Assembly: GCA_965204115.1 (NCBI GenBank)
Contig: OZ241963.1
Location: 121,475 to 185,474 of the forward strand
Source of the DNA: Minisyncoccota bacterium
Lineage (GTDB): Bacteria; Patescibacteriota; Minisyncoccia; Phycocordibacterales; JABAAK01
Length of the DNA stretch: 64,000 nt
Direction of reading: 5' to 3'
The position numbers and the translations under genes were made by a program. The notes beneath the pieces are model-generated. The model ran no database searches. It was not told the origin of the DNA and saw only the letters and a list, made by a program, of their open reading frames with translations. Shown in pieces: positions 4,971-50,641 of this stretch. Every line of letters begins with the position of its first letter. Position 1 is the first letter of the stretch.

Positions 4971-5670
4971 TACACAAAACGATAGTATTGTGCAGAAGAT
5001 GGAGGACACCATCGGCTATCGTTTTACTGATAAAAATGTAATACTGCAGGCGCTCACACATCGTTCGTATACGAATGAACACCCGGGGACGGCTCATAAC
5101 GAGCGACTTGAGTTTTTGGGTGATGCGGTGCTTCAGTTTACCGCTACCCGTACGCTGTACACGCTGTACCCTGATGTTGCAGAAGGGGAGTTGAGCGTGA
5201 GTCGCTCATTGCTGGTAAAAACAGAGTTTTTACTCCAAGCGGCAGAGAAATTGGAAATACCGACATGCCTGCGGGTATCAAGCGGGCAGAAGAAGGATTT
5301 AAACACGGTGAGTACAAGCTTATTTGCTGATGCGGTAGAGGCGATTATCGGTGCGATATACCTTGATGGCGGGCTTGAGTCGGCAGAACAATTTATTTTT
5401 GATAAAGTGCTGGTTGATATAACGGGATACCTGTCGCAGGTGCCGCTGCAGGACGCAAAAACGGCCTTGCAGGAATATACCCAGCAGGAATTTGACATAA
5501 CACCGGAGTATGTTGTGTTAGATGAATCCGGACCTGATCACGCCAAAACTTTCACCATCGGGGTTAAGGTCGGGGATGCGATGCATGCGCAGGCAGTTGG
5601 GAAATCAAAGCAGGAGGCAGCGCAAAAAGCCGCTGAAGAAACGCTGAAAAAGTACAAGAAGGGGAAGTGA
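4957..5670 (+). CDS. rnc: Ribonuclease III
   Basis: LQALTHRSY, ERLEFLGDAVL signature and a C-terminal dsRBD (...GPDHAKTFTIGVKV...GKSKQEAAQKAA). Overlaps the nusB stop by 14 nt. Confidence 0.9.
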   Translation: MRKDNTQNDSIVQKMEDTIGYRFTDKNVILQALTHRSYTNEHPGTAHNERLEFLGDAVLQFTATRTLYTLYPDVAEGELSVSRSLLVKTEFLLQAAEKLEIPTCLRVSSGQKKDLNTVSTSLFADAVEAIIGAIYLDGGLESAEQFIFDKVLVDITGYLSQVPLQDAKTALQEYTQQEFDITPEYVVLDESGPDHAKTFTIGVKVGDAMHAQAVGKSKQEAAQKAAEETLKKYKKGK

Positions 5671-5865
5671 TGGTTGACCATTTGATTATTTTATTGTACA
5701 GTTATATCACGAACAAAATAGTATGTCAACGGGTTGCTTTTTTTGATTTTTTTGTTATTATATATGTAAAGTACTGAGGGCAAGAAGCCTGATGTATGTT
5801 GCTGTACATTACCCAAGTAAATTAACAATATGGTCGCTTGACGACCCCAAAAGAGGAGGATTGAC

Positions 5866-6372
5866 ATGATTAATAAAATGTCAGCCAAGCTTTCTTTCAT
5901 CTTGGTCGCACTGTTAGCGGCCATAGGTATGAGCGTTATCGGGTGTGGGCAAATGAGTGACTCTCCCACGGACGGAATTATTTCAGGGGGAGATGATGAA
6001 ATCTCTGGAAAAACTCCGGAAATTGCGATTGTGAAGACGATCACCACAAAAGCGGGTACCACTGAGATTTCCTACCACTTTGAGTCGGATATGGACCTTG
6101 AGATGAGTATCGTCGTAGGGCTGGAAGTTAGAACCGGAGATAACACGGAAGGCGCAATCGTCATCCTGCAGAAAGACACGAGTGTCTCTGAGGCGTTTTC
6201 TTTCGGAGATCACATCAGTCAGGTCACGATCTTGCAGCACAAGGATCTCCTTGACTTTAAGTCAACCGTAGCGGCGATAAATGAGGCGGATATGTCTGTT
6301 GATTTCACACAGTATCCGGTCCACCAGAGGCCGTACAATGTGAACACGGAAAATAGTTCGGTTTCCAGATAG
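5866..6372 (+). CDS. Hypothetical lipoprotein
   Basis: Signal peptide MSAKLSFILVALLAAIGMSVIGC with a lipobox-like VIGC. SD-like AGGAGGA sits upstream of the ATG. Confidence 0.6.
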   Translation: MINKMSAKLSFILVALLAAIGMSVIGCGQMSDSPTDGIISGGDDEISGKTPEIAIVKTITTKAGTTEISYHFESDMDLEMSIVVGLEVRTGDNTEGAIVILQKDTSVSEAFSFGDHISQVTILQHKDLLDFKSTVAAINEADMSVDFTQYPVHQRPYNVNTENSSVSR

Positions 6373-10410: not shown

Positions 10411-11559
10411 ATGGCAGACAGCATGAATGAAAAAGGAAGAGGCATGCAGCATAGTCTCAATTTTTTGCGAAAGCATGATCTTTATCAGCAGCTTGTGTTG
10501 GGTAGAAGTCAGTCGAAGGCACCCAAGCCATCAAAGAAAACAAGGGATACTTTTTTAAGTTCACTCGGCAATCAGGTGGGCATTGACCTCGGCACCGCAA
10601 CAACAGTGGTGTATGTGAGCGGTAAGGGGGTAGTTATGCGGGAGCCGACCTTGGTCGCGGTGAATAAGCGAACAGACCAGGTTGTCGCCATCGGCAAACG
10701 AGCGCGACAAATGATCGGCAGGACGCCTGAGTATATTGAGGTGATACAGCCGGTACAATTGGGTGTTATCAATGACTATGAAATAACTGAGCAGCTGTTT
10801 GAGCATATCTTCAGAAAAGTGCAGGATGCACTGCCGAAAATTTTCAGCCCTTCAGTGATTATCGGCGTGCCCTGCCGTACTTCTCAGGCGGAAATAAACG
10901 CCGTGCGTGATGCGGTTGTTGACGCAGGTGCGCGGCGAGTGGGTATTGTGTATGAGCCATTTGCTGCTGCGGTAGGTATTGACCTGCCGCTGCTGAGCGA
11001 AACAGCAGTTATGGTTATTGATATCGGCGGCGGCACTAGCGACACGATGATTCTTGCCGGCGGAGAAATCGTCTCTTCAGATAGTATACGAGTTGCCGGT
11101 GATGCGTTTGACTCAGCGATTGTTGAAGGGCTCAAAGAGCGAAAGCATATTGTCATCGGTGAAAGAACCGCAGAGGATCTGAAAGTCGCGATGATGCAAT
11201 CGGCAAAAGAGCAGAAGGTGTTCGGCGTGCAGGGCAGAAGCAGCAGCACCGGATTGCCGCTGGAGATAGAGGTTTCATTTGAAGAAATTGTGCAGATACT
11301 TGAACCCTACCTGGAAAAAATCGCTGAATATATCGGCGCCTTTGTGGGGCAGTCATCCCCGGAGGTGCAGGCGGATTTGAAAAATAATAATATCTATTTT
11401 GTTGGCGGCGGACCGGCGGTACACGCTTTTCCGAAAAAAATCGAAGACATGCTTAACCTGCGCGTTATTGTCCCGGAAAATGCGACCGGACTTGTTGCGC
11501 GAGGCACGGCGGTGATTGCGCAAAATCCTGATAGATATGAAAAATATTTTCTCGCGTAA
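10411..11559 (+). CDS. mreB: Rod shape-determining protein MreB (actin-like ATPase) with a ~50-aa N-terminal extension
   Basis: GIDLGTATTVVYV, IGGGTSD and VGGGP actin-fold motifs. The annotated start may instead be the internal Met at 10444. Confidence 0.85.
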   Translation: MADSMNEKGRGMQHSLNFLRKHDLYQQLVLGRSQSKAPKPSKKTRDTFLSSLGNQVGIDLGTATTVVYVSGKGVVMREPTLVAVNKRTDQVVAIGKRARQMIGRTPEYIEVIQPVQLGVINDYEITEQLFEHIFRKVQDALPKIFSPSVIIGVPCRTSQAEINAVRDAVVDAGARRVGIVYEPFAAAVGIDLPLLSETAVMVIDIGGGTSDTMILAGGEIVSSDSIRVAGDAFDSAIVEGLKERKHIVIGERTAEDLKVAMMQSAKEQKVFGVQGRSSSTGLPLEIEVSFEEIVQILEPYLEKIAEYIGAFVGQSSPEVQADLKNNNIYFVGGGPAVHAFPKKIEDMLNLRVIVPENATGLVARGTAVIAQNPDRYEKYFLA

Positions 11560-12380: not shown

Positions 12381-12647
12381 ATGCAAAACATACGGAAAAA
12401 AATTATGGCTTGCGGCATAGTGATACTCGGCATTATTATGGCACCACTCTTCCCGTTTTGGGGATTGCTCCTGATGCCGATACTGCTCCTCCTGCTCGGT
12501 CAGCCGGTTGTCGCATTGTTGCTTGCCTTGCTTCTTGATTCGTTTTTGGCACCCGGCGGTGTTGCGCCGATATGGACATCTCTCACCTTCTATACGACAC
12601 TCTGCATACTGTTTTACGCCTATCTGCGCTATACTACCACCGTATGA
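12381..12647 (+). CDS. mreD: Small polytopic membrane protein, probable MreD-like
   Basis: 88 aa, almost entirely hydrophobic. Placed between mreC and PBP2 in the canonical mreBCD-mrdA order. Confidence 0.45.
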   Translation: MQNIRKKIMACGIVILGIIMAPLFPFWGLLLMPILLLLLGQPVVALLLALLLDSFLAPGGVAPIWTSLTFYTTLCILFYAYLRYTTTV

Positions 12648-14350
12648 ATATACCAGCGCGCCTTGCCGGAGGGATACGCCGACTCTTCAGGAAAAGGCGG
12701 CGAATTCAACCCGTTCATCTGCATAAAACTTATATTGACAAGACAATATCCGGCGAGGAATTTTCTGTTCAGGATGGGGAAGGGCACCTGCACCGCTCAA
12801 TTGCCCTGCATCAACTCTACTGGATTGGTGCGGTTTTTGCGCTGTTTGTCCTGGTGATGTTGGGTAAGACCGGCTATCTCCAAATCGTGGTCAGCGAGCA
12901 GTATACCCAGATTAGTGAAAATAACTCATTTGATCGTGTTGCCGTGCTGCCGGTTCGGGGCACTATTTATGACCGCAACGGCACACCGATCGCGTGGAAT
13001 GCAGGCGAGAGCGGCGACCCTATGCCGGAGCGGCGATACTTCGGGGAAGGATTCAGCTCATTGCTCGGCTTTATGCGCTACCCCAAGCAGGATGCGATGG
13101 GCACTTATTATCGCCAGGAGACAGAAGGGAGCGGCGGATTGGAGCAAAAATATAATTTTCTGCTCGCCGGTGGCAGCGGTTCAATTGTGCTGGAGAAAGG
13201 TGCGACCGGCGAGGTTATCTCAGAACTTTACATAGAACACCCGACGGACGGTGAGGATGTGGTTATATCTCTTGACGCTGCTGTGCAGGATATCCTGTAT
13301 ACCACCATCAAAGAGGTTGCTGAAGAGCGGGAGTTTCAAAGCGGCTCTGCCGCTATTTTGGATGTGCAGACCGGGGAAATTATTGCGCTGGTGTCATACC
13401 CGGATTTTGATAACAACGCGCTGGTGAGCAAGACAGAAAAAATACCGACTGACTATGTGCAGCAGCAGGATGAAGGGGTGTTTGTACACCGAGCGATCTC
13501 GGGGCTGTATAGCCCGGGTTCAACGGTTAAACCGTTTTTTGCCGCTGCTGCGCTTGAAGAAGAGGTTATTAGGCCGACTGACATTATTACCAGTAACGGA
13601 TTTATCACTCTGCAAAATCCTTACGACCCCGACATTGTCTATACCTACAAAGATTGGAAAGTGCATGGTGACCTGGATGTCTATGGCGCAATTGCGCAGT
13701 CGTCTAATGTGTATTTCTATTATGTCGGTGGCGGGTACGGTCACATAGACGAAGGGCTTGGTATTGACCGTCTGAACTTTTATGCTGAAATGTTTGGCTT
13801 TGGGCGACCGACGACTATCGGCGTATTTCATGAACCGGAAGGATTGTTGCCAAATCCGAAATGGAAAAAGAATCGTTACGGTGAAGATTGGACTATCGGT
13901 GATACCTATAATACCGTCATCGGACAGTATGCTTTTCAGGTGACCCCACTGCAGCTCGCTCGAGCGACTGCGGCGATTGCGAATGGCGGCATTTTGCTTG
14001 AACCTCACCTACAAAAAGAAGAGCGATCAAAAAAAATTCGCTTAGCGATATCACCGGAAAGCTTGGCTATGGTGCGCGCCGGTATGCGAAAAACAGTGTT
14101 GGAGGGGACGGCAAAAATACTGCGTACTGATACGCACACGCTTGCGGCGAAAACCGGCACTGCGCAGGTCGGCACGGCCGGACTCCTTAATTCGCTGCTT
14201 ATTGGCTTTTTCCCCTATGAAAGGCCGAAATACGCCTTTGCTATCGTTATGGAGCGCAGTGAGCAGGAAGGGGGTGCTTTGAGCGCTGCACGGGCATTTT
14301 TTGACGCTATGAGGGTACAGCATCCTCACTATTTACAAGTTACAAGGTAA
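12644..14350 (+). CDS. mrdA: Penicillin-binding protein 2 (elongasome transpeptidase)
   Basis: N-terminal TM anchor, then a transpeptidase domain with the active-site STVKP and KTGTAQV motifs. Start at MNIPARL overlaps the mreD stop (ATGA). Confidence 0.85.
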   Translation: MNIPARLAGGIRRLFRKRRRIQPVHLHKTYIDKTISGEEFSVQDGEGHLHRSIALHQLYWIGAVFALFVLVMLGKTGYLQIVVSEQYTQISENNSFDRVAVLPVRGTIYDRNGTPIAWNAGESGDPMPERRYFGEGFSSLLGFMRYPKQDAMGTYYRQETEGSGGLEQKYNFLLAGGSGSIVLEKGATGEVISELYIEHPTDGEDVVISLDAAVQDILYTTIKEVAEEREFQSGSAAILDVQTGEIIALVSYPDFDNNALVSKTEKIPTDYVQQQDEGVFVHRAISGLYSPGSTVKPFFAAAALEEEVIRPTDIITSNGFITLQNPYDPDIVYTYKDWKVHGDLDVYGAIAQSSNVYFYYVGGGYGHIDEGLGIDRLNFYAEMFGFGRPTTIGVFHEPEGLLPNPKWKKNRYGEDWTIGDTYNTVIGQYAFQVTPLQLARATAAIANGGILLEPHLQKEERSKKIRLAISPESLAMVRAGMRKTVLEGTAKILRTDTHTLAAKTGTAQVGTAGLLNSLLIGFFPYERPKYAFAIVMERSEQEGGALSAARAFFDAMRVQHPHYLQVTR

Positions 14351-14628
14351 GTTGTCAAGCAGGGGAACATCTTTTTGGAGGAAACTAAAATGACAAGAAT
14401 GACTTACTCTATGAAGCACCTTGGGTGGTCGTAGCAAAACCACATAAGGTGCTTGAAGGACTTCATCACTGCCCTGCGGGGTGAGGGGGCGAGCCCTCCT
14501 CGGTAATATTTGAAGTCGGCCAAAAGGGCTTAGTCCAGCCCATGCTCTCGGGTTTTAAGAAGTGATCCGAGGAGGGTGGGACCTCCGAAACAACTTCTAA
14601 TCTGTTCTTTTACAATAGGTGGGAACAC
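14351..14628 (+). ncRNA. Candidate structured non-coding RNA (family unidentified), ending at an intrinsic terminator
   Basis: ~280 nt with no ORF and several strong stem-loops: aagcacctt...aaggtgctt, cctcctcgg...ccgaggagg, gggcttagtccagccc. Directly followed by the terminator at 14629-14659. Confidence 0.4.
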
Positions 14629-14659
14629 GGGAGACCGAAAGGTCTCCCGTTTTTCTTTT
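14629..14659 (+). terminator. Intrinsic terminator GGGAGACC-gaaa-GGTCTCCC + GTTTTTCTTTTT (member of a repeated element; see 44574)
   Basis: Perfect 8-bp GC stem, GNRA-like loop, U-run. Confidence 0.8.
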
Positions 14660-14699
14660 TATACAAAAAAACTTATTAGGTGTGGCATACTATGGGAGT

Positions 14700-16982
14700 A
14701 TGGCGATACTCGATGTGTTACTCGGCTCTGAGTCAGAGCGATATGTAAAAGGGTCCAAAGGTGTGGTGCGGAAAATACAGGAGCATAAAGAAGCGTTTTC
14801 AGCGTTGTCTGATAGCGATTTGCAGGAGAAGACGAACACTTTTAAAAAACAATTACAGGATGGGGCAGTATTAGATGCTGTACTGCCGGAGGCATTTGCG
14901 GTGGCTTGTGAGGCGGTGCGGCGGACGACCGGGATGGATCCGTTTGCGGTGCAGATCATTGGTGGCAAGGCGATTCACGAGGGGTCTATTGCCGAGATGC
15001 GTACCGGTGAGGGAAAAACGCTTGTGGCAGTGCTGCCGGCGTACTTGAACGCGCTGAGCGGTAAGTCGGTACATATTGTGACCGTGAACGACTACCTGGC
15101 ACGGCGAGATGCGGTGTGGATGGGGCAGGCGTTCGCGTTTTTGGGTTTGACGATAGGGGTGATTAACGGACAGGACGGATCGTATATCTATGATGCGGAG
15201 CATCAGGAGCAAGACCGGGAGCGGGATGATGAGGGATCGTATAAGGTGGTGCACGAATTTTTACGCGAGGTGAAGCGTGAGGAGGTATATCAGTGTGATA
15301 TTGTCTATGGAACGAATAATGAATTTGTGTTTGACTACCTGCGGGATAACATCGCGTATGATCCGGAGGAGGTTCGGCACCGAGGATTTCACTTTGCTAT
15401 TATAGACGAGGTGGATTCTATTCTCATCGATGAGGCGCGTAGTCCGCTGATCATTTCCGCGCCATCAAACATTCCTGCATCGCACTATATTCAGTTCACC
15501 AGATTTGCTGATTCGCTGAAAGAGGAGGAGGATTACACCATTGACGAGAAAAAACGGGCAGTTGCGTTGACCGCAAGCGGTATTGAGAAGTTTGAACGCT
15601 CGTTGAAAGTGGAGAATGTGTATGTTGAGGGTGCGCAGCGAACACTACACTATCTGCATAATGCGCTGAAGGCGAAGTCGCTGTTTAAGCGGGATAAGCA
15701 GTATGTGGTACGGGATGATCAGGTAATTATTGTTGATGAATTCACCGGACGACTGCAGCCCGGGCGACAGTGGAGTGACGGCATCCATCAGGCAGTTGAG
15801 GCAAAAGAAGGGGTAACCGTGAAGCAGGAAACGCGCACCTATGCATCTATCACTTTTCAAAATTATTTTCGGATGTACGAGAAACTCGCTGGCATGACCG
15901 GAACGGCAAAATCCTCTGAGGAGGAATTTTATAAGGTGTACAAAATGCCGGTAATGAGTGTGCCGACGAACAAGCCGATACAGCGTGTTGACCATCAGGA
16001 TGCTATTTATCAAACCCATCATGCGAAACTCCGTGCCGTTGTTGCAAAGGTGAAAGATCTGCACGAAAAAGGGCAGCCGGTACTGGTTGGTACTGCGTCC
16101 ATAGATCACAACGAAGCCCTTTCCAAGCGGCTGAAGAAGGCGAAGGTCCCGCACGAAGTACTCAACGCGAAGAACCATGAGCGGGAAGGTGAAATTATCG
16201 CGCAGGCAGGGAAACGAGGCGCAGTGACGATCGCGACTAACCTTGCCGGGCGAGGGGTTGATATCAAGCTTGGCGGTGCGACGGCAGAAGAGTCGAAGCA
16301 GCATGCAGATGCGATTAAGGAGCTCGGTGGACTGTTTGTGCTGGGAACCGAACGGCATGAGTCGCGACGGATTGATGATCAGTTGCGAGGGCGGTGCGGT
16401 CGACAGGGCGACCGGGGTGAGACGCAGTTCTACCTATCGCTGGAGGACGATCTGACACGCGTGTTCGGATCAGATCAGGTAAAGCAGGTCGCGGAGCGGC
16501 TCGGCTTGCCGGAAGATCAAGGGATACAGAATAAAATTATATCAAGGTCAATAGAAAGTGCACAAAAGCGGGTGGAGGGGCATCATTTTGATGCGCGACG
16601 GTTCAGCTTAGAGTACGACACTATCTTAGACACCCATCGCGGGGAGGTGTACACGCGGCGACGAGAGATATTGCTGGCAACAACCCTTGATCCACTGCAG
16701 GAATTTCTAGATAAAAAAACTATTGAGGTGATGGAGGAGCAACACGGCGAAACTGCTGTTACCGAACTACGAAGGTTGGTATTGCGCAGCATTGATATGG
16801 CGTGGATGGAGCACCTTGAACTGATGGATTATGCACGGAGCAGTGCGGGACTGCGATCATACGGACAGCGGGAGCCGCTGATGGAATACAGAAAGGAGGG
16901 CAATCAGTTATTCAGTGGTTTTTGGGGATATGTGCGGGAACTTGCTACAAAGCCGACAGAAAGCGCTGCAAAAGGTGAGTAG
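14700..16982 (+). CDS. secA: Preprotein translocase ATPase SecA (short form, no C-terminal zinc-finger tail)
   Basis: Start at [11 protein letters not shown]. Motifs MRTGEGKT (Walker A), [39 protein letters not shown]. Confidence 0.9.
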   Translation: [760 protein letters not shown]

Positions 16983-17640: not shown

Positions 17641-18801
17641 CTATACCGTAAGGGCAGGAAACGAGAGATTTGCATCGGCGCTGAGGGTTTCTGCTGCCGT
17701 GGTGACACGATTTGCATAGGCAGCCAGCGCGATCATCACTGCATTATCAGTTGCGTAGGAGCGATTGGTACAGTAGAGTGCGACTTGTGGGTGTTGTTCG
17801 GAGAGTCGTCGGAATTGTTCTCGAAGCTGTTTATTTGCTGAAACCCCGCCACTGACGATGATACTTTTCGGGCTGTGGTGTTCTAGTGCGCGCTGTGTTT
17901 TTACCAATAGCGTTTCAACGACTGCATCTTCAAATTCCATCGCTAAGGCCGCCCTCTCATCTTCTGAAAGGTTTGGGTGTTTTTCACAGAAGACCCGAAC
18001 CGCTGTTTTTAAACCGGCATAGGAAAAGTTGAGGGTGTTGTCCTGCAGCATTGGGCGAGGAAGCATGGTCGGCGGTGTGGTGCCGGCGGCACGAGCGGTC
18101 TCGGCGAGATCTGCCAGTGCGGGGCCGCCCGGGTAGGGTAGTCCGAGTAATCGCGCCACCTTGTCAAATGCCTCGCCTGCGGCGTCGTCGAGTGTTTGTC
18201 CTATTTTTTGATAGGCGCCGAGGTGTGGTGAGAGCACCAGCTCGGTGTGGCCGCCGGATACCAAGAGAGCGAGGATCGGGTACTGCGGCGTGATGAGCTC
18301 GACATCGGTAATGAGCGCGGAGACAATATGCCCCTCCATATGGTTGACCGGGATAATGGGTATATCCCACAAGAGCGCGAGCGCCCGGGTGAAATTGACC
18401 CCGACCCAAAGTGCCGGTGCGAGCCCCGGTCCGCGGGTGACTGCTAATGCGTCTATAGTGGTCGGGCGGGTATGGGCAAAGTGCTGTTCAATCGCTTTCA
18501 ACATATCCGGTTCGCGTGCGCAAATTTGTCGTATTGCGTCAGATATCTGAGCAGACGGCTCTTTCTGCAGAAGTGACTCATCTTCAAGCAGTGCGTGCGT
18601 CAGGATAGGGAGTATTTTTTGATGTTCCCGTTTTGCCAGAGATGGGTAAACACCACCGTATGAGTTGTGCATGTCGGACTGTGAGTGTAATTTTTCAACA
18701 AGTATTTGATAGTGTGTTTTGCTGCCCGTATCGGTGAACGAAAGAAGGGCAACCGCCGTTTCATCGCAGCTTGTCTCAATAGAGAGAATACGCATAGACA
18801 C
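17641..18801 (-). CDS. tsaD: tRNA N6-threonylcarbamoyladenosine synthase TsaD (Kae1/YgjD family)
   Basis: ILSIETSCDETAVAL, HMEGH metal-binding motif, LLVSGGHTEL, SGGVSAN. Confidence 0.9.
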   Translation of the reverse strand: MSMRILSIETSCDETAVALLSFTDTGSKTHYQILVEKLHSQSDMHNSYGGVYPSLAKREHQKILPILTHALLEDESLLQKEPSAQISDAIRQICAREPDMLKAIEQHFAHTRPTTIDALAVTRGPGLAPALWVGVNFTRALALLWDIPIIPVNHMEGHIVSALITDVELITPQYPILALLVSGGHTELVLSPHLGAYQKIGQTLDDAAGEAFDKVARLLGLPYPGGPALADLAETARAAGTTPPTMLPRPMLQDNTLNFSYAGLKTAVRVFCEKHPNLSEDERAALAMEFEDAVVETLLVKTQRALEHHSPKSIIVSGGVSANKQLREQFRRLSEQHPQVALYCTNRSYATDNAVMIALAAYANRVTTAAETLSADANLSFPALTV

Positions 18802-18809
18802 AGTATATG

Positions 18810-19090
18810 TTATTTAGGAGCAACGCAACACGGATGTTGCGTTGCGAGTAGGCGCAAATTGAATTTTGCGCTGCAAGACAGGTGCGACTGCCAAGTCGCA
18901 CAGTGAAATGACACGGATGTTGCGTTGCGAGTAAGATGCGACTGCCAAGTCGCACAATAATGGATATGAAAAAACCCCCATGCGGTGAGAGTTTGGCAAG
19001 GTTATGATGGTGAGATTATGAAACCTGCCAATTACTCTCGGTGCATAGGGGGCGAGGCATTATTTTTTTGTAAGTAAGGAGGCATGCCTC
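18810..19090. repeat. Cluster of tandem hairpin repeats plus a ~90-nt long hairpin with bidirectional U-runs (REP-like / terminator region)
   Basis: Unit acacggatgttgcgttgcgagta...gtgcgactgccaagtcgcac is repeated at 18829 and 18909. Hairpins gcaacgcaaca-cgga-tgttgcgttgc and gtgcgact-gcca-agtcgcac. Long stem ccccatgcggtgagag...ctctcggtgcataggggg. Palindrome gaggcatgcctc flanked by T- and A-runs. Confidence 0.6.
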
Positions 19091-19220
19091 TGAGAAAAAA
19101 ACAGAATGGAAAAAACCATGTACTGTATTTTATACTACCATACTTTTTTCCTAACAAGTAGGTATATAAGCATTTGCTGTATTGTCAAATGTGTTGCTTG
19201 ATGCCTTGCGAAAAGAAGAT

Positions 19221-19829
19221 TTAAGCAAGTGGGTTGCGGTGGGTGAGGGCATTGATGAGTGTTTCAGGGTCTGAGTATTCCACCTCGGAGCCGGAGGAGA
19301 GTCCTCGACCGAGCGTGGTAATAGTGATGTCGGGGAACCGCTGCTTGAGCAGATTGCTCAGATGGCGCGCGGTGTGATCAGCATCAGGATGAACAGCCAG
19401 TGCAATGATGATTTCTTTCGGACCGTGGGTCTCCACAGAAGTGATAAGTTGGGGGATACGAGCGGATGTTTGCTCGCTGTTTGCGATGGGGACGAGTCCG
19501 CCAAGGATGAAGTAGTAGCCCTGAATAACCGCACTGGCTGACGCGGCAAGCATGCCGGCGTCCACATCTTTTTCAACGACAATGAGGGTGTCAGTATGGC
19601 CCTGCTCACAGACCGAGCATTTTGTTGTTTGCTGTTGATGGCGGATAAAGCACTGCGGACACTGTTTGCTGGCACGGTGCAGAGCGATGATGGCTTCCGT
19701 GAGATGCTGTACATACTGTGTGTCCTGTCGACTCAGAAACCGCGCGAAGCGCTCCGCTTGCCGGAGCCCGATACCGGGAAAGCGTTTGAAGAGCATGATA
19801 AGGCGTGCTAATGTTTCTTCTTGCTGCAT
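19221..19829 (-). CDS. recR: Recombination protein RecR
   Basis: HhH N-terminus (LIMLFKRFPGIGLRQAERFARFL), C4 zinc finger (CPQCF...CSVC), Toprim domain (TLIVVEKDVD...). Start at MQQEET just after the dnaB stop. Confidence 0.85.
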   Translation of the reverse strand: MQQEETLARLIMLFKRFPGIGLRQAERFARFLSRQDTQYVQHLTEAIIALHRASKQCPQCFIRHQQQTTKCSVCEQGHTDTLIVVEKDVDAGMLAASASAVIQGYYFILGGLVPIANSEQTSARIPQLITSVETHGPKEIIIALAVHPDADHTARHLSNLLKQRFPDITITTLGRGLSSGSEVEYSDPETLINALTHRNPLA

Positions 19830-35451: not shown

Positions 35452-35524
35452 GCCACCTTAGCTCAGTTGGTAGAGCAGCGCACTCGTAACGCGCAGGTCG
35501 TCGGTTCAAATCCGACAGGTGGCT
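35452..35524 (+). tRNA. tRNA-Thr (anticodon CGU); no CCA encoded
   Basis: Cloverleaf: acceptor GCCACCT/AGGTGGC, D-arm GCTC-AGTTGGTA-GAGC, anticodon loop CTCGTAA (U33, CGT, A37), T-arm GTCGG-TTCAAAT-CCGAC, discriminator T. Confidence 0.9.
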
Positions 35525-38615: not shown

Positions 38616-38880
38616 TTTTATCCACAAACCCTTATTTCACGGGCTATTTTAGTGATATACTCAGTATATATAAAAGGCACCTGCCCGCAAGAGGTTGACA
38701 ATTGTGTTGTGTTGTGGTATAGTAATATCAGTGATGGGGATTTAGACAATTCTCTTAAGGTGTATTTGGGAAGCGGCAACCTATTAAATAGAGGGGAAAC
38801 CTCTACATTGTGTATTAAGCGCAATCCACAAGTCACCTTAAGAGAGTTGTATAAATGTATAGTTTGTATGACTTTGGTCT
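38616..38880 (+). promoter_or_regulatory. Copy A of a duplicated promoter-leader cassette: a 137-bp conserved 5' block (incl. TTATCCACA and a sigma70 promoter), a 75-bp unique insert bracketed by a 14-bp inverted repeat, and a 44-bp conserved 3' block
   Basis: Near-identical to 62125-62381 except for the insert. Promoter TTGACA(38695-38700)-17 bp-TATAGT(38718-38723). IR caattctcttaagg (38747-38760) / ccttaagagagttg (38836-38849). Confidence 0.8.
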
Positions 38881-39085
38881 TTTACAAGAAAAAGGGAGGA
38901 CAAGTACATAGTCCACATAACATGATTGTTTCTCAGTCAGGTTATGCGGGCTGTGTACATGAGGTACATGAGCGACCAAAACCTTTAAACTCCTGGATTT
39001 CAACCTACAGCACGCTTTGTCTGCATATGGGATGTATGCAGCGTGTTTGGGGTTGATTTCCGTATTTCCCATAGGAGGGAAACAC

Positions 39086-39658
39086 ATGTCTGTTAAAATT
39101 GCAAAAAAAGTCACGAGCGCTCACGTTGAAAAGTCCATATCTCGCCGCAACCCGTTTGGCCTTCGTGAAAATCCTCTCTCAATCGCGCTCCAAGAGGCGA
39201 TTAATGAGTACAGAGGGGGGTTTGAAGAAGAGCCCTATGAATTTTGGAAGCTCAGAGGGGCTAATGTTTCCTATGACGAGGACGGGAGAATGGCACTGGT
39301 TGTCCAGGACGGCTCCTATGTTCGGGGAAACACGTACCGGACATTGGCCTATTTCACCCCGAGAGCTATTGAGCTCTATCATGAGTGGGTTGCCCAAAAA
39401 GGGCGCCTCGGCAGATTTGCCGCTCAACGCACTGGGTGGACGCAACCTGGTGTTGAAGGCCCGTCACTGCCGTCTTGCGTCATCGTAGTCCAAGATGCTG
39501 ATAAGTTTTTGGAAACATCTTGGGACGCGGGCACGATTGATATCGTCTCCGTGAAAGACTATGAAAATGAGCAACTTCTCGCCGAGAAACGGGAGGAGTT
39601 GCGGGAGTGCTGGCGGAACATCCGTCGGCTGAAGAAGGAAATCAGGAAGATCTCTTAA
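39086..39658 (+). CDS. Hypothetical protein (family A/B, copy A), 190 aa, cytoplasmic
   Basis: SD GGAGGGA 7 nt before the ATG. Shares ENP[LV] and G..V.[YI]D[ED][DN].[RK][MI].L...[DE]G motifs with the copy-B protein. Charged helical C-terminus. Confidence 0.6.
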   Translation: MSVKIAKKVTSAHVEKSISRRNPFGLRENPLSIALQEAINEYRGGFEEEPYEFWKLRGANVSYDEDGRMALVVQDGSYVRGNTYRTLAYFTPRAIELYHEWVAQKGRLGRFAAQRTGWTQPGVEGPSLPSCVIVVQDADKFLETSWDAGTIDIVSVKDYENEQLLAEKREELRECWRNIRRLKKEIRKIS

Positions 39659-43920: not shown

Positions 43921-44059
43921 GTATGGCAATGATAGGTTGACATCTATCTATTTTATGGCATAATGAATTAAACCTTATTTTTATAAGGGGTGTATGAATT
44001 TGTATTCTATATGCTCCTTATCAGACTCTGAAATTTTATATGCCCAGGAGGCAAGAGCA

Positions 44060-44551
44060 ATGAAATTGTCAAGACAGATTTTTCTGATAACTTTGATTTT
44101 AGTGACTGCGATAATTATAGTAGGGTGCGGCGATGGGCCGGAGCAAGTCGTGTTGCCCGAATACGAAATCCAACCAGGTGATGCTACAGCCCCTCTTGAT
44201 CCGGTGACCATTCTTGACTTAAAAGTCGGTGAGGGGGATCTCGCAGAGCCGCCAAACACAGTGAGCGTGGGGTATGTCGGCACGCGAATTGACCCGGAAA
44301 CAGGTGTAGAGCTTATTTTTGACCAAATGACCGATCGCCATCTCCCATTTGTTTTCCAGTTGGGCGACGAGCAGGTGATCCCGGGATTTGAAATAGGTGT
44401 GACAGGTATGCGAGTCGGCGGGAAGCGACTGGTCACCATCCAGCCGGAGATGGGATACGGTGATCAACAGGTGGCCAGCATTCCGCCGAACACAACGCTG
44501 CATTTCTTGATTGAGCTGTATGAGGTTAAATTTGAAGAGGGTTTAGAGTAA
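44060..44551 (+). CDS. FKBP-type peptidyl-prolyl cis-trans isomerase lipoprotein
   Basis: Signal peptide + lipobox IVGCG. FKBP domain (...GDEQVIPGFEIGVTGMRVGGKR...IPPNTTLHFLIELYEV). Confidence 0.8.
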   Translation: MKLSRQIFLITLILVTAIIIVGCGDGPEQVVLPEYEIQPGDATAPLDPVTILDLKVGEGDLAEPPNTVSVGYVGTRIDPETGVELIFDQMTDRHLPFVFQLGDEQVIPGFEIGVTGMRVGGKRLVTIQPEMGYGDQQVASIPPNTTLHFLIELYEVKFEEGLE

Positions 44552-44573
44552 CCTGTTCTTTGCGGGCGGAGAT

Positions 44574-44606
44574 GGGAGACCAAACAGGTCTCCCATTTTT
44601 CTTTTT
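44574..44606 (+). terminator. Intrinsic terminator GGGAGACC-aaaca-GGTCTCCC + ATTTTTCTTTTT (second copy of the element at 14629)
   Basis: Near-identical stem and 3' tail to the secA-upstream terminator. The upstream ctgttcttt is also shared. Confidence 0.8.
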
Positions 44607-44651
44607 ATAAAAAATCTTGTTTGATGTGGCAAGCAGCGGACAGACCGATGA

Positions 44652-49953: not shown

Positions 49954-50004
49954 GAAGGCATCAACTCTCAGTTCGGGTATAGTGCTGGTGAGTAAGCGGA
50001 ATAC

Positions 50005-50390
50005 TATGTCGCACAATATACCTTTTGCGACATTGTGCAAAGCACAATGTCGCAAAAGGTCTCGTAGATTATGCGACAAATAAATTGTCGCATAATCTAC
50101 GGCCAAAGGTTCCGTATATTGTGCAACAAGCAAGTTGTCGCACGATATACGGCTAAACCCTCCATTAAAGTGTTGGCTTTGCACAATGTCGCAAAAGGTT
50201 TTGAATATTATACGACAAACAAGTTGTCGTATAATATTCAACCACCTACCAATCAAATAACATAGGTGGAGGACGCAAGCGGTATGTCGCAAAAGGTTCC
50301 GCACACTGTGCGAAAAGCAGCAGGTTTTTATAATCTATGACTTCCCTGCTGAAGTATAAATTTTGTGGCATGTCGCACAATATTTGACCT
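50005..50390. repeat. Array of long inverted repeats / half-sites with a TGCGACAA...TTGTCGCA core (at least 4 full palindromes and ~12 half-sites)
   Basis: Perfect palindromes at 50021-50059 (18-bp arms), 50064-50100 (16-bp arms) and 50201-50241 (18-bp arms), plus an imperfect one at 50114-50150. ATGTCGCAAAAGGT recurs three times and ATGTCGCACAATAT twice. Confidence 0.85.
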
Positions 50391-50394
50391 CTTT

Positions 50395-50613
50395 TTACCA
50401 AAAGATAATCTGCAGGAGGTTCTTTTTTGGCGGCTGGCAATCACGATGAGGATTTTCTGCAGTTTGCACGCAGTCGTAGAAATCCCATGATTCACCTTTG
50501 CCCACCAGGCGTGGCCATACGAAAATTTGTGCTGCTATGAAAAGAACACAGAAAAGAAAGTTGTACAGCAGAATGAATTTTAAAAAGACGATAAATTTAT
50601 TTTTCCTGGCCAT
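50395..50613 (-). CDS. Possible small single-TM membrane protein downstream of glyS
   Basis: 72-aa ORF from an internal Met (MARKNKFIVFLKFILLYNFLFCVLFIAAQIFVW...), 27 nt after the glyS stop. No SD identified. Confidence 0.3.
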   Translation of the reverse strand: MARKNKFIVFLKFILLYNFLFCVLFIAAQIFVWPRLVGKGESWDFYDCVQTAENPHRDCQPPKKNLLQIIFW

Positions 50614-50641
50614 CAAAGGCAGTATACCGCTTGATTTTTTG

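Follow-up and report, generated by a model that had tools for sequence, protein, structure and literature searches.

The PBP2-secA locus

The stretch of DNA analysed here, referred to throughout as the window, is a 64-kb piece of contig OZ241963.1 (positions 121,475 to 185,474 of the forward strand), in which the gene for PBP2 is separated from secA by a non-coding stretch on the + strand (window positions 14351-14660). Judged from its sequence and that of its relatives, this stretch represents a new and very narrowly distributed family of structured small RNA (sRNA) that matches no catalogued family. The host is a Kaiserbacteria-like bacterium of the candidate phyla radiation (CPR), or Patescibacteria, with a very small genome; the species representative with the closest SecA (88% identity) is a Candidatus Kaiserbacteria metagenome-assembled genome. 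Genomes of CPR bacteria measure about 0.7 Mb and encode hardly any recognisable regulators; the non-coding RNAs of the group are, to our knowledge, almost unexplored. The features of the locus are listed below, with SD for Shine-Dalgarno, ORF for open reading frame and PK for the pseudoknot; numbered helices are those of the structure model described in the next section.

10411-11559, + strand: mreB
Between mreB and PBP2, + strand: mreC-like ORF
12572-14350, + strand: PBP2 (mrdA-like transpeptidase; Pfam Transpeptidase and PBP_dimer), the final gene of an mreB-mreC-(mreD)-PBP2 block
14351-14397, + strand: strain-specific junction, with nothing alignable in sister strains except the SD-AUG stretch; blastn homology begins at 14398
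14379-14435, + strand: SD-like GGAGG (14379-14383) and a mini-ORF of 14 codons (ATG at 14391, MTRMTYSMKHLGWS, TAG at 14433-14435)
14414-14429 and 14439-14454, + strand: helix I2, aagcaccttgggtggt / accacataaggtgctt, 88% complementary
14414-14454, + strand: hairpin P2 (aagcacctt...aaggtgctt; helix 3), three pairs changed on both sides
14457-14461, + strand: 5' strand of PK, GGACU, whose partner is the P5 loop at 14532-14536 (helix 4, 100% paired)
14472-14481, + strand: small hairpin P3, CCC-UGCG-GGG (helix 5), seen in the alignments, its formal count limited by the MAFFT register
14483-14508, + strand: strand b, GAGGGGG, then the C-rich block CCCUCCUCGGUAAUA (14494-14508), invariant in 7/7 copies
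14494-14503 and 14567-14576, + strand: long-range helix I4, ccctcctcgg / ccgaggaggg, 10/10 paired, surrounding gggc-ttagtcca-gccc at 14526-14541
14526-14541, + strand: hairpin P5, GGGC-UUAGUCCA-GCCC (helix 7, 100% paired), its loop 14532-14536 (AGUCC) being the 3' strand of PK
14545-14590, + strand: 3' switch region, with CUCUCGGGUU (14545-14554), GAUCCGAGGAGGGUGGG (14564-14580, holding the 3' arm of I4 at 14567-14576) and the anti-SD-like CCUCCGAAA (14582-14590)
14602-14660, + strand: terminator cassette, CUGUUCUUU, spacer, GGGAGACC-GAAA-GGUCUCCC, then UUUUUCUUUUU
14681-14702, + strand: extended -10-like box of secA, TGTGGCATACT (14681-14691), and the secA ATG at 14700, both outside the RNA
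14700-16982, + strand: secA

Fold of the RNA and compensatory changes

The stable helices named in a preliminary description of the region are all present, and the region folds better than shuffled sequences. The minimum free energy (MFE) of the whole 310-nt region is -120.5 kcal/mol, compared with -94.5 ± 5.4 for dinucleotide shuffles (z -4.84; none of 100 shuffles matches it), and the 203-nt core without the terminator (14398-14600) gives a z of -3.29, with one of 200 shuffles as good. A noisy scan of 213 windows of 300 nt on the + strand, using 12 shuffles, places the region among the top six by structure. Because G-U pairs are numerous among the supported pairs and the folding energy of the - strand is worse by about 20 kcal/mol, the RNA is assigned to the + strand.

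Homologues were reached via the 90% cluster of PBP2, which yielded five further contigs from very close strains, whose PBP2 is about 95% identical to that of the window. The sister strains derive from samples SAMN17524321-25. Two of these contigs (L085 and L087) are identical, so that the set consists of five distinct sequences (the window, L085/L087, L086, L088 and L089) and seven distinct copies of the RNA, three of them in L089: copy C is full-length, in copy A the last 50 nt ahead of the terminator are missing, and copy B is partial, without a terminator. Only positions 14398-14660 of the window have counterparts in other strains. A structure model comprising P1, P2, P3, the local hairpin b:c, P5, PK, P6 and the terminator was tested on the seven-copy alignment (A3), in which 90.7% of the cells are paired, as opposed to at most 57.7% when the 3' partners are slid. 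Pairs changed on both sides number 11, compared with 6.2 ± 1.9 in shuffled alignments (6/500 reach 11), and the covariation score is 0.199 versus 0.144, a value that none of 500 shuffles attains; compensatory changes thus go beyond the controls, within a set of only seven related sequences.

The signal is carried by the distal part of P2, by P5 and by PK, and the compensatory changes across the seven copies support these three elements as parts of the predicted fold. In P2, the distal stem changes from GUGGU/ACCAC to GUAAU/AUUAC, and L088 has a short UUCG hairpin (GCGC-UUCG-GCGC) in place of P2. Three of the four pairs of P5 are changed on both sides (GGGC/GCCC, GGGU/ACCC, AAGU/GCUU), as are three adjacent pairs of the five in PK, where GGACU/AGUCC becomes GAGUU/GACUC in L089A and L089B. 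The GGACU strand sits 70 nt upstream of the P5 loop AGUCC; P5 and PK together form an H-type pseudoknot with linkers of 2 nt and 1 nt and a 64-nt insertion that holds P3 and CCCUCCUCGGUAAUA. P3 forms in the relatives with other sequences (CUUCC-CACG-GGAGG, CUCC-GAAA-GGAG, CCC-UACG-GGG).

The centre of the molecule admits more than one pairing. The hairpin b:c (helix 6) is 98% paired, shows no covariation and competes with the long-range helix I4. The latter, which the preliminary description had listed as cctcctcgg/ccgaggagg, is indeed present and fully paired in the window; however, it was rejected as the core of the fold, because no covariation is seen and two mismatches (in L086 and L088) are uncompensated; its 5' arm is invariant, and its strands have competing partners. 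For instance, GAGGGGG can pair with CCCUCCUC, GGAGG with CCUCC, and the 5' SD with CCUCCGA, the SD:CCUCCGA duplexes being possible in every full-length copy; CUCUCGG/CCGAG-GAG is a further alternative to I4. In the 3' switch region, which is missing from L089A and L089B, several mutually exclusive pairings are possible: CUCUCGGGUU can pair with GAUCCGA-GAG, and helix 8 has one compensatory pair, found in L088. In that same strain, the changes of strand b from GGGGU to GAAGU and of the P5 5' arm from GGGU to AAGU both track a change of CC to UU in the P5 3' arm, which hints at two competing helices. Since single-sequence folds disagree over the centre of the molecule, a two-state fold is treated here as an inference.

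Transcription unit and deletion in the window

The sister strains carry an additional gene between PBP2 and the RNA, which is described as follows.

L085 4991-5626, L086 4171-4776, L088 4912-5478, L089 4920-5408: lipoprotein gene of 162-211 aa, with lipobox IAGC and acidic repeats

No Pfam domain matches this lipoprotein, and its identity to the L085 ORF drops to 88% (L086), 52% (L088) and 37% (L089) among strains whose PBP2 is 95-98% identical; it is a fast-evolving, hypervariable surface protein adjoining secA. A few nucleotides past its stop codon in L085 lies the promoter TTGACA-17-CATCAT with an upstream TG (5629-5657; 10/12 matches), and the terminator follows 340 nt downstream (5966-5997). 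L086 has TTGACA-17-CATTAT at the same place, and the same terminator ends the RNA. Because of this promoter and shared terminator, the RNA is predicted to be a unit of its own in at least L085 and L086, about 340 nt long, that starts at a strong promoter of the sigma-70 type and finishes at an intrinsic terminator. In L089, a promoter (5708-5736; 11/12 matches) precedes a 90-nt extra module (module X), after which copies B and C follow; copy A of that strain has no promoter of its own, and none was found in L088.

The extra module of about 90 nt (GCAACGC...GUUGUUUGUGUUGCAAAA...GUGCAAGCCAUAAGCCCCUGCAC) occurs at L088 5508-5600 and L089 5745-5835, the two being 84% identical; in L089 it is placed between the strong promoter and the RNA, and neither L085, L086 nor the window has it. 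The module may represent an additional 5' domain or else a small RNA in its own right. A further resemblance concerns the lipoprotein gene: positions 43934-44037 of the window, covering the promoter, 5' untranslated region (UTR) and signal-peptide start of an FKBP lipoprotein gene, are 85-90% identical to L085 4846-4972 and L089 4776-4886, which are the corresponding part of the variable lipoprotein gene of the sister strains. This match looks like a shared lipoprotein expression cassette and is a possible substrate for recombination.

The window itself lacks the lipoprotein gene, the RNA promoter, the 5' leader and the 5' arm of P1 (a CCCC-loop-GGGG helix in the relatives), and the junction 14351-14397 stands in their place, leaving P1 (helix 1) unpaired. 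The lipoprotein ORF is found in both sister sub-lineages, with one of which the window groups by fourfold sites, and the window state is for this reason a deletion, by which its RNA copy was truncated at the 5' end. Between the PBP2 stop codon and the RNA of the window, the terminator scan found no terminator and no promoter-like site was seen; therefore, this copy can be read only as a 3' extension of PBP2. Its transcription would come solely from the mreB-PBP2 operon, at whose end it lies, and the same terminator would release it, in the manner of a 3' UTR. The two options left by the preliminary description, namely an independent transcript or a long mrdA 3' UTR, are thus both encountered, the former in L085 and L086 and the latter in the window.

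These arrangements bear on the view that the region is a passive 3'-end structure, i.e., a long structured 3' UTR and terminator region whose sole effect is to stabilise or insulate the mRNA of the upstream gene. The RNA does directly follow a coding gene without a promoter in the window and in L089A, and its final 60 nt are a generic terminator cassette; however, in L085 and L086 a strong promoter separates the upstream stop codon from the RNA, and protection of a 3' end would not require a pseudoknot, a conserved SD-AUG or an invariant 15-nt block. This view is accordingly judged unlikely.

Distribution and constraint

The RNA is confined, as far as the searches reached, to the strains named above. 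The five genus-level relatives L081-L084 and L091 (PBP2 69-79% identical) gave no element by nhmmer or by a covariance model with filters off, and they carry different genes after PBP2, so that a conserved 3' UTR of PBP2 was rejected. Among the genus-level relatives examined, the position behind PBP2 is occupied by different genes (tRNA_edit, GrpE in both L082 and L091, Big_13, YgjP-like); in L083 (6133-9698), a G/T-rich spacer of 434 nt comes after PBP2 and leads to a giant ORF of 4,414 aa with Big_13 domains. A SecA scan of genome contigs returned four CPR relatives only, with SecA 54-88% identical, none of which has the RNA upstream of secA, and a conserved secA leader was likewise rejected. 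The closest of them (L001, SecA 88%) has an unrelated 235-nt spacer before secA, of which the final 13 nt (GGTGTGGCATACT) are kept. Scanning of JGI metagenomes with the invariant pattern gave a single chance match in a coding region, the IMG/VR pattern scan gave no homologue of the RNA, and blastn against phages and plasmids gave only terminator-like matches.

Such a record invites the explanation that the region is a non-functional or selfish repeat in a hypervariable island, its structure and the likeness of its copies reflecting recent duplication and recombination and not selection. The narrow distribution, the three copies in L089 (two of them truncated), the 5' truncation in the window, a core identity near neutral for some pairs and a tree incongruent with that of PBP2 are all consistent with this explanation. 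On the other hand, compensatory substitutions have accumulated in three helices, including the three adjacent pairs of the long-range pseudoknot; blocks of 15 nt (all copies) and 42 nt (window and L085) are free of differences, although fourfold sites diverge by roughly 25-30%; and neither terminal inverted repeats, target-site duplications nor other copies occur in the 64-kb window. A selfish or non-functional repeat is thus considered distinctly unlikely. The conflict between the RNA and PBP2 trees, together with the changes in copy number, nevertheless marks the PBP2-secA spacer as a recombining, hypervariable island, and the RNA may be accessory.

Terminator cassette and the secA promoter

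The terminator scan confirmed the final GAAA hairpin and U-run of the preliminary description as an intrinsic terminator, with a 10-bp stem (14627-14650; seven GC pairs), a GAAA loop and TTTTTCTTTTT, and this terminator is kept in every copy that reaches that far. A near-identical cassette follows the FKBP-type lipoprotein gene (43994-44551) at 44553-44610, reading CTGTTCTTT, spacer, GGGAGACC-loop-GGTCTCCC and then TTTTTCTTTTTATA; because the cassette recurs after an unrelated gene, it is regarded as generic and not as a regulated platform.

Downstream of the terminator, the box TGTGGCATACT lies 8 nt before the secA ATG and is retained in L001, which has no RNA. The motif TGTGGYATACT, allowing up to two mismatches, occurs 28 times in the window compared with 15.4 ± 4.1 expected, and 11 of 25 filtered matches lie 3-13 nt before the start of an ORF of at least 80 codons, compared with 2.9 ± 1.6 at random positions; typically the distance to the start codon is 6-12 nt. 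Examples are found at 14681, 28932, 44662, 52016 (- strand) and 59743 (- strand). The motif is taken, from its positions and frequency, to be the extended -10 element of promoters in this organism, which suggests that many mRNAs are leaderless or nearly so, and secA is probably leaderless.

Whether the RNA could be a cis-acting leader, as a riboswitch or attenuator that governs terminator read-through into secA and is perhaps coupled to translation of the mini-ORF, can be weighed on this basis. The RNA is located directly upstream of secA and on the same strand in all five distinct sequences, its terminator ends 40-50 nt before the secA ATG, and an SD, a mini-ORF and a chain of mutually exclusive helices are combined as in classical attenuators. 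However, secA has a conserved -10 box of its own at 8 nt from the ATG, which is present also without the RNA and belongs to a type usually found in front of leaderless starts, and for this reason the RNA is not considered its leader; no upstream segment is complementary to the 5' arm of the terminator, so that no antiterminator is visible; the terminator is a cassette reused elsewhere; copy L089A is followed by a promoter and not by a gene; and relatives with 54-88% identical SecA do without the RNA. The sequence hence lacks the marks of a riboswitch or attenuator for the downstream gene, the statement of the preliminary description that the region is not a secA leader holds, and a cis-acting role is improbable.

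Comparison with known RNA families

Rfam 15, applied to the whole window at gathering thresholds, reports only rRNA, 5S and one tRNA. At E up to 10 on both strands of 14250-14750 and of the full-length L085 copy, only terminator-driven noise appears (MicX, L20 leader), and neither the whole window at E up to 0.5 nor the full-length homologues yield a family for the RNA. ARAGORN finds no tmRNA and, in the whole window, only a tRNA-Thr at 35452. The failure of the preliminary description to match the region to tmRNA, RNase P, SRP or T-box is borne out by these searches at relaxed thresholds on both strands, and the Rfam search that it had suggested for the region gives no family at E up to 10.

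Several families were considered and set aside individually. A T-box gives no match at E up to 10, and the gene downstream, secA, is not an aminoacyl-tRNA or amino-acid gene; the T-box-like GGGUGGU belongs to the P2 stem, at a distance of 200 nt from the terminator, and is not conserved, being UAGGUAAU in L085 and L086 and deleted in L088. A tmRNA is matched by neither ARAGORN nor Rfam, and RNase P, SRP and 6S RNA give no match at E up to 10 (14250-14750 and the L085 copy) or at E up to 0.5 (window). Membership in the raiA motif, whose model comprises a core (P3a-P3b, P4, PK1, PK2), bulges in P1 and a conserved linker, was rejected because there is no Rfam match at E up to 10, neither the element nor any of the loci contains the linker UUAGACGUAA, and the pseudoknot is of another topology.

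By kind and context, the raiA motif/ModT RNA of Bacillota and Actinomycetota is nonetheless the nearest apparent analogue. A raiA motif RNA is encoded by a discrete gene between a promoter and a terminator of its own and contains pseudoknots, and secA, hpf and prfB are common neighbours (PMC10861870, PMC12968392); the promoter-to-terminator unit directly upstream of secA in L085 and L086 shares this context, which is not a defining one. Both are discrete, ornate RNAs of 200-300 nt, and, like raiA, the present RNA would not be cis-regulatory. Unlike raiA, in which a 5' hairpin loop pairs with a 3' linker, the RNA studied here has a 3' hairpin loop that pairs with a 5' single strand, and whereas raiA is single-copy in more than 2,500 species, the present RNA is known from one species-level clade and varies in copy number. 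That the RNA could be a very divergent member of a known family (raiA motif/ModT, T-box, 6S, RNase P, SRP or tmRNA) is suggested by the discrete, pseudoknotted build and secA neighbourhood that raiA RNAs also have (PMC10861870) and by the GGGUGGU of the window; given the negative searches on the window copy and full-length L085, the missing linker, the different topology and the lack of conservation of GGGUGGU, this is very improbable.

Three further types of RNA offer partial parallels. Small RNAs at the 3' ends of mRNAs are known to arise by two routes, from a shared mRNA terminator or from an internal promoter, and both have a counterpart here: in the window and L089A, the RNA directly follows a coding gene and ends at the terminator of that transcript, and an internal promoter drives it in other strains. 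However, 3'-UTR-derived sRNAs are usually 50-150 nt long with one accessible seed, whereas the RNA studied here has about 270-340 nt, a pseudoknot and an SD-AUG mini-ORF. Attenuators and riboswitch platforms share the chain of mutually exclusive helices, a sequesterable SD and a final terminator; unlike them, the locus has no antiterminator overlapping the terminator, a generic terminator cassette, and a secA gene with its own promoter that is probably leaderless. Gram-positive mRNAs also carry 5' stabiliser modules, such as STAB-SD in Bacillus or the aprE-type leader hairpin plus ribosome-binding site. The P1 of the sister strains, directly after which comes an SD-like sequence with no genuine protein-coding ORF to serve, resembles these modules, although the window copy has no P1.

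The mini-ORF

The preliminary description had stated that no ORF is present, which is correct in that no credible ORF of at least 20 codons exists; however, it overlooked the 14-codon mini-ORF with its strong SD. An SD-like purine tract, an A-rich spacer of 8-11 nt and an AUG are kept in all seven copies, and the mini-ORF reads M-T-Y-stop in L085, L086 and L089C, M-N-Y-stop in L088, M-N-stop in L089A, and extends over 20 codons in L089B and 14 in the window, where the longer frame arose after a 9-nt duplication and a change of UGA to UCU. No peptide is conserved beyond M-(T/N)-Y across the seven copies, and the 14-residue peptide of the window is unique; a leader peptide or small protein was rejected because the ORF is not conserved. 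A type I toxin-antitoxin system is not indicated either, the ORF having two or three codons in 5/7 copies and not being hydrophobic, with sequestration of the SD possible. The reading of the region as the mRNA of a small protein, to which the conserved SD, spacer and AUG lend some colour, is scarcely credible with frames of 2 (one copy), 3 (four copies), 14 and 20 codons and more than 200 nt of conserved structure past the stop codon. The ribosome-binding signal of the mini-ORF may itself matter.

Proposed mode of action

The explanation preferred as a whole, trans action included, is that the + strand carries a gene for a small non-coding RNA that is highly folded and specific to the lineage, and a probability of about 0.55 is given to it; the best guess as to the type of RNA is a trans-acting or ribonucleoprotein-type structured sRNA. 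Such an RNA would not regulate secA in cis and would act in trans, either in association with a protein or the ribosome or by pairing with mRNA. The strands that resemble an SD (GGAGG, GAGGGGG, GAGGAGGG) and those that resemble an anti-SD (CCCUCCUC, CCUCCGA) would pair in two exclusive sets: in the first, b:c and d:e would form and the 5' SD would be free; in the second, c:d would form and strand e would pair with the SD. A switch between the two sets would toggle the exposure of the invariant C-rich block CCCUCCUCGGUAAUA. P1, the SD and the mini-ORF would together constitute a ribosome-loading 5' stabiliser, by analogy with the STAB-SD or aprE-type leaders.

Several observations weigh against this explanation. 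Neither a trans target for the invariant C-rich block within the 64-kb window nor a gene for a partner protein is evident. The core identity of 0.71-0.86 is, for several pairs, not clearly above the neutral identity at fourfold sites (0.66-0.78 over all pairs), and the relationships among the copies conflict with the PBP2 tree: the RNA of the window is nearest to L089C, yet their PBP2 sequences are the most distant. Duplications, truncations and deletions at the locus amount to accessory or dispensable behaviour, and the window copy, which lacks P1 and the promoter, may be decaying. Moreover, a sample of seven copies in five distinct sequences gives the covariation statistics little power, and these statistics were computed on the very sequences that had served to derive the structure.

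A more specific proposal, offered as distinctly speculative, is that the RNA represents a new class of pseudoknotted riboregulators in CPR/Patescibacteria. Members would be about 300 nt long, with SD and anti-SD strands and two folds coupled to ribosome loading on a three-codon mini-ORF; their target would be translation initiation or a protein associated with the ribosome, and they would play the part of raiA/ModT-type RNAs in a host many of whose mRNAs appear leaderless.

Other structured regions in the window

Two other stretches of the window are strongly structured. The first, 50003-50383 (within the ORF-free gap 49954-50641), is a dense palindrome array built on TTGTCGCA / TGCGACAA, with eight copies of a 14-mer like ATGTCGCACAATAT and several perfect inverted repeats of 17-24 bp; it is the most structured 300-nt window of the scan (z about -10.9), Rfam finds nothing there, and it may represent either an array of operators or iterons or a repeat-based RNA array. 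The second, 38696-39090, begins with a strong promoter (TTGACA-17-TATAGT, 38696-38725) and continues with a 360-nt leader up to an SD and ATG at about 39073-39089. This leader is very strongly folded (MFE -134.8, z -8.5, with a 17-bp perfect helix), and has no Rfam match. With it, the window has a second candidate for a structured RNA or leader. Apart from these, a sub-threshold Rfam match to rpfG RNA at 18791-18865 (27.3 bits against a gathering score of 75.9, E 0.087), located at the edge of a 556-nt ORF-free gap (18802-19357), is probably due to chance.

Significance

The very narrow known distribution and the dispensable 5' part of the RNA limit its importance for now. What has been found is a pseudoknotted RNA outside Rfam, running from promoter to terminator in a hypervariable surface-lipoprotein island beside secA, and a covariance model of it is now available for finding more members. 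If functional, it would be among the first lineage-specific structured RNAs described for the CPR group.

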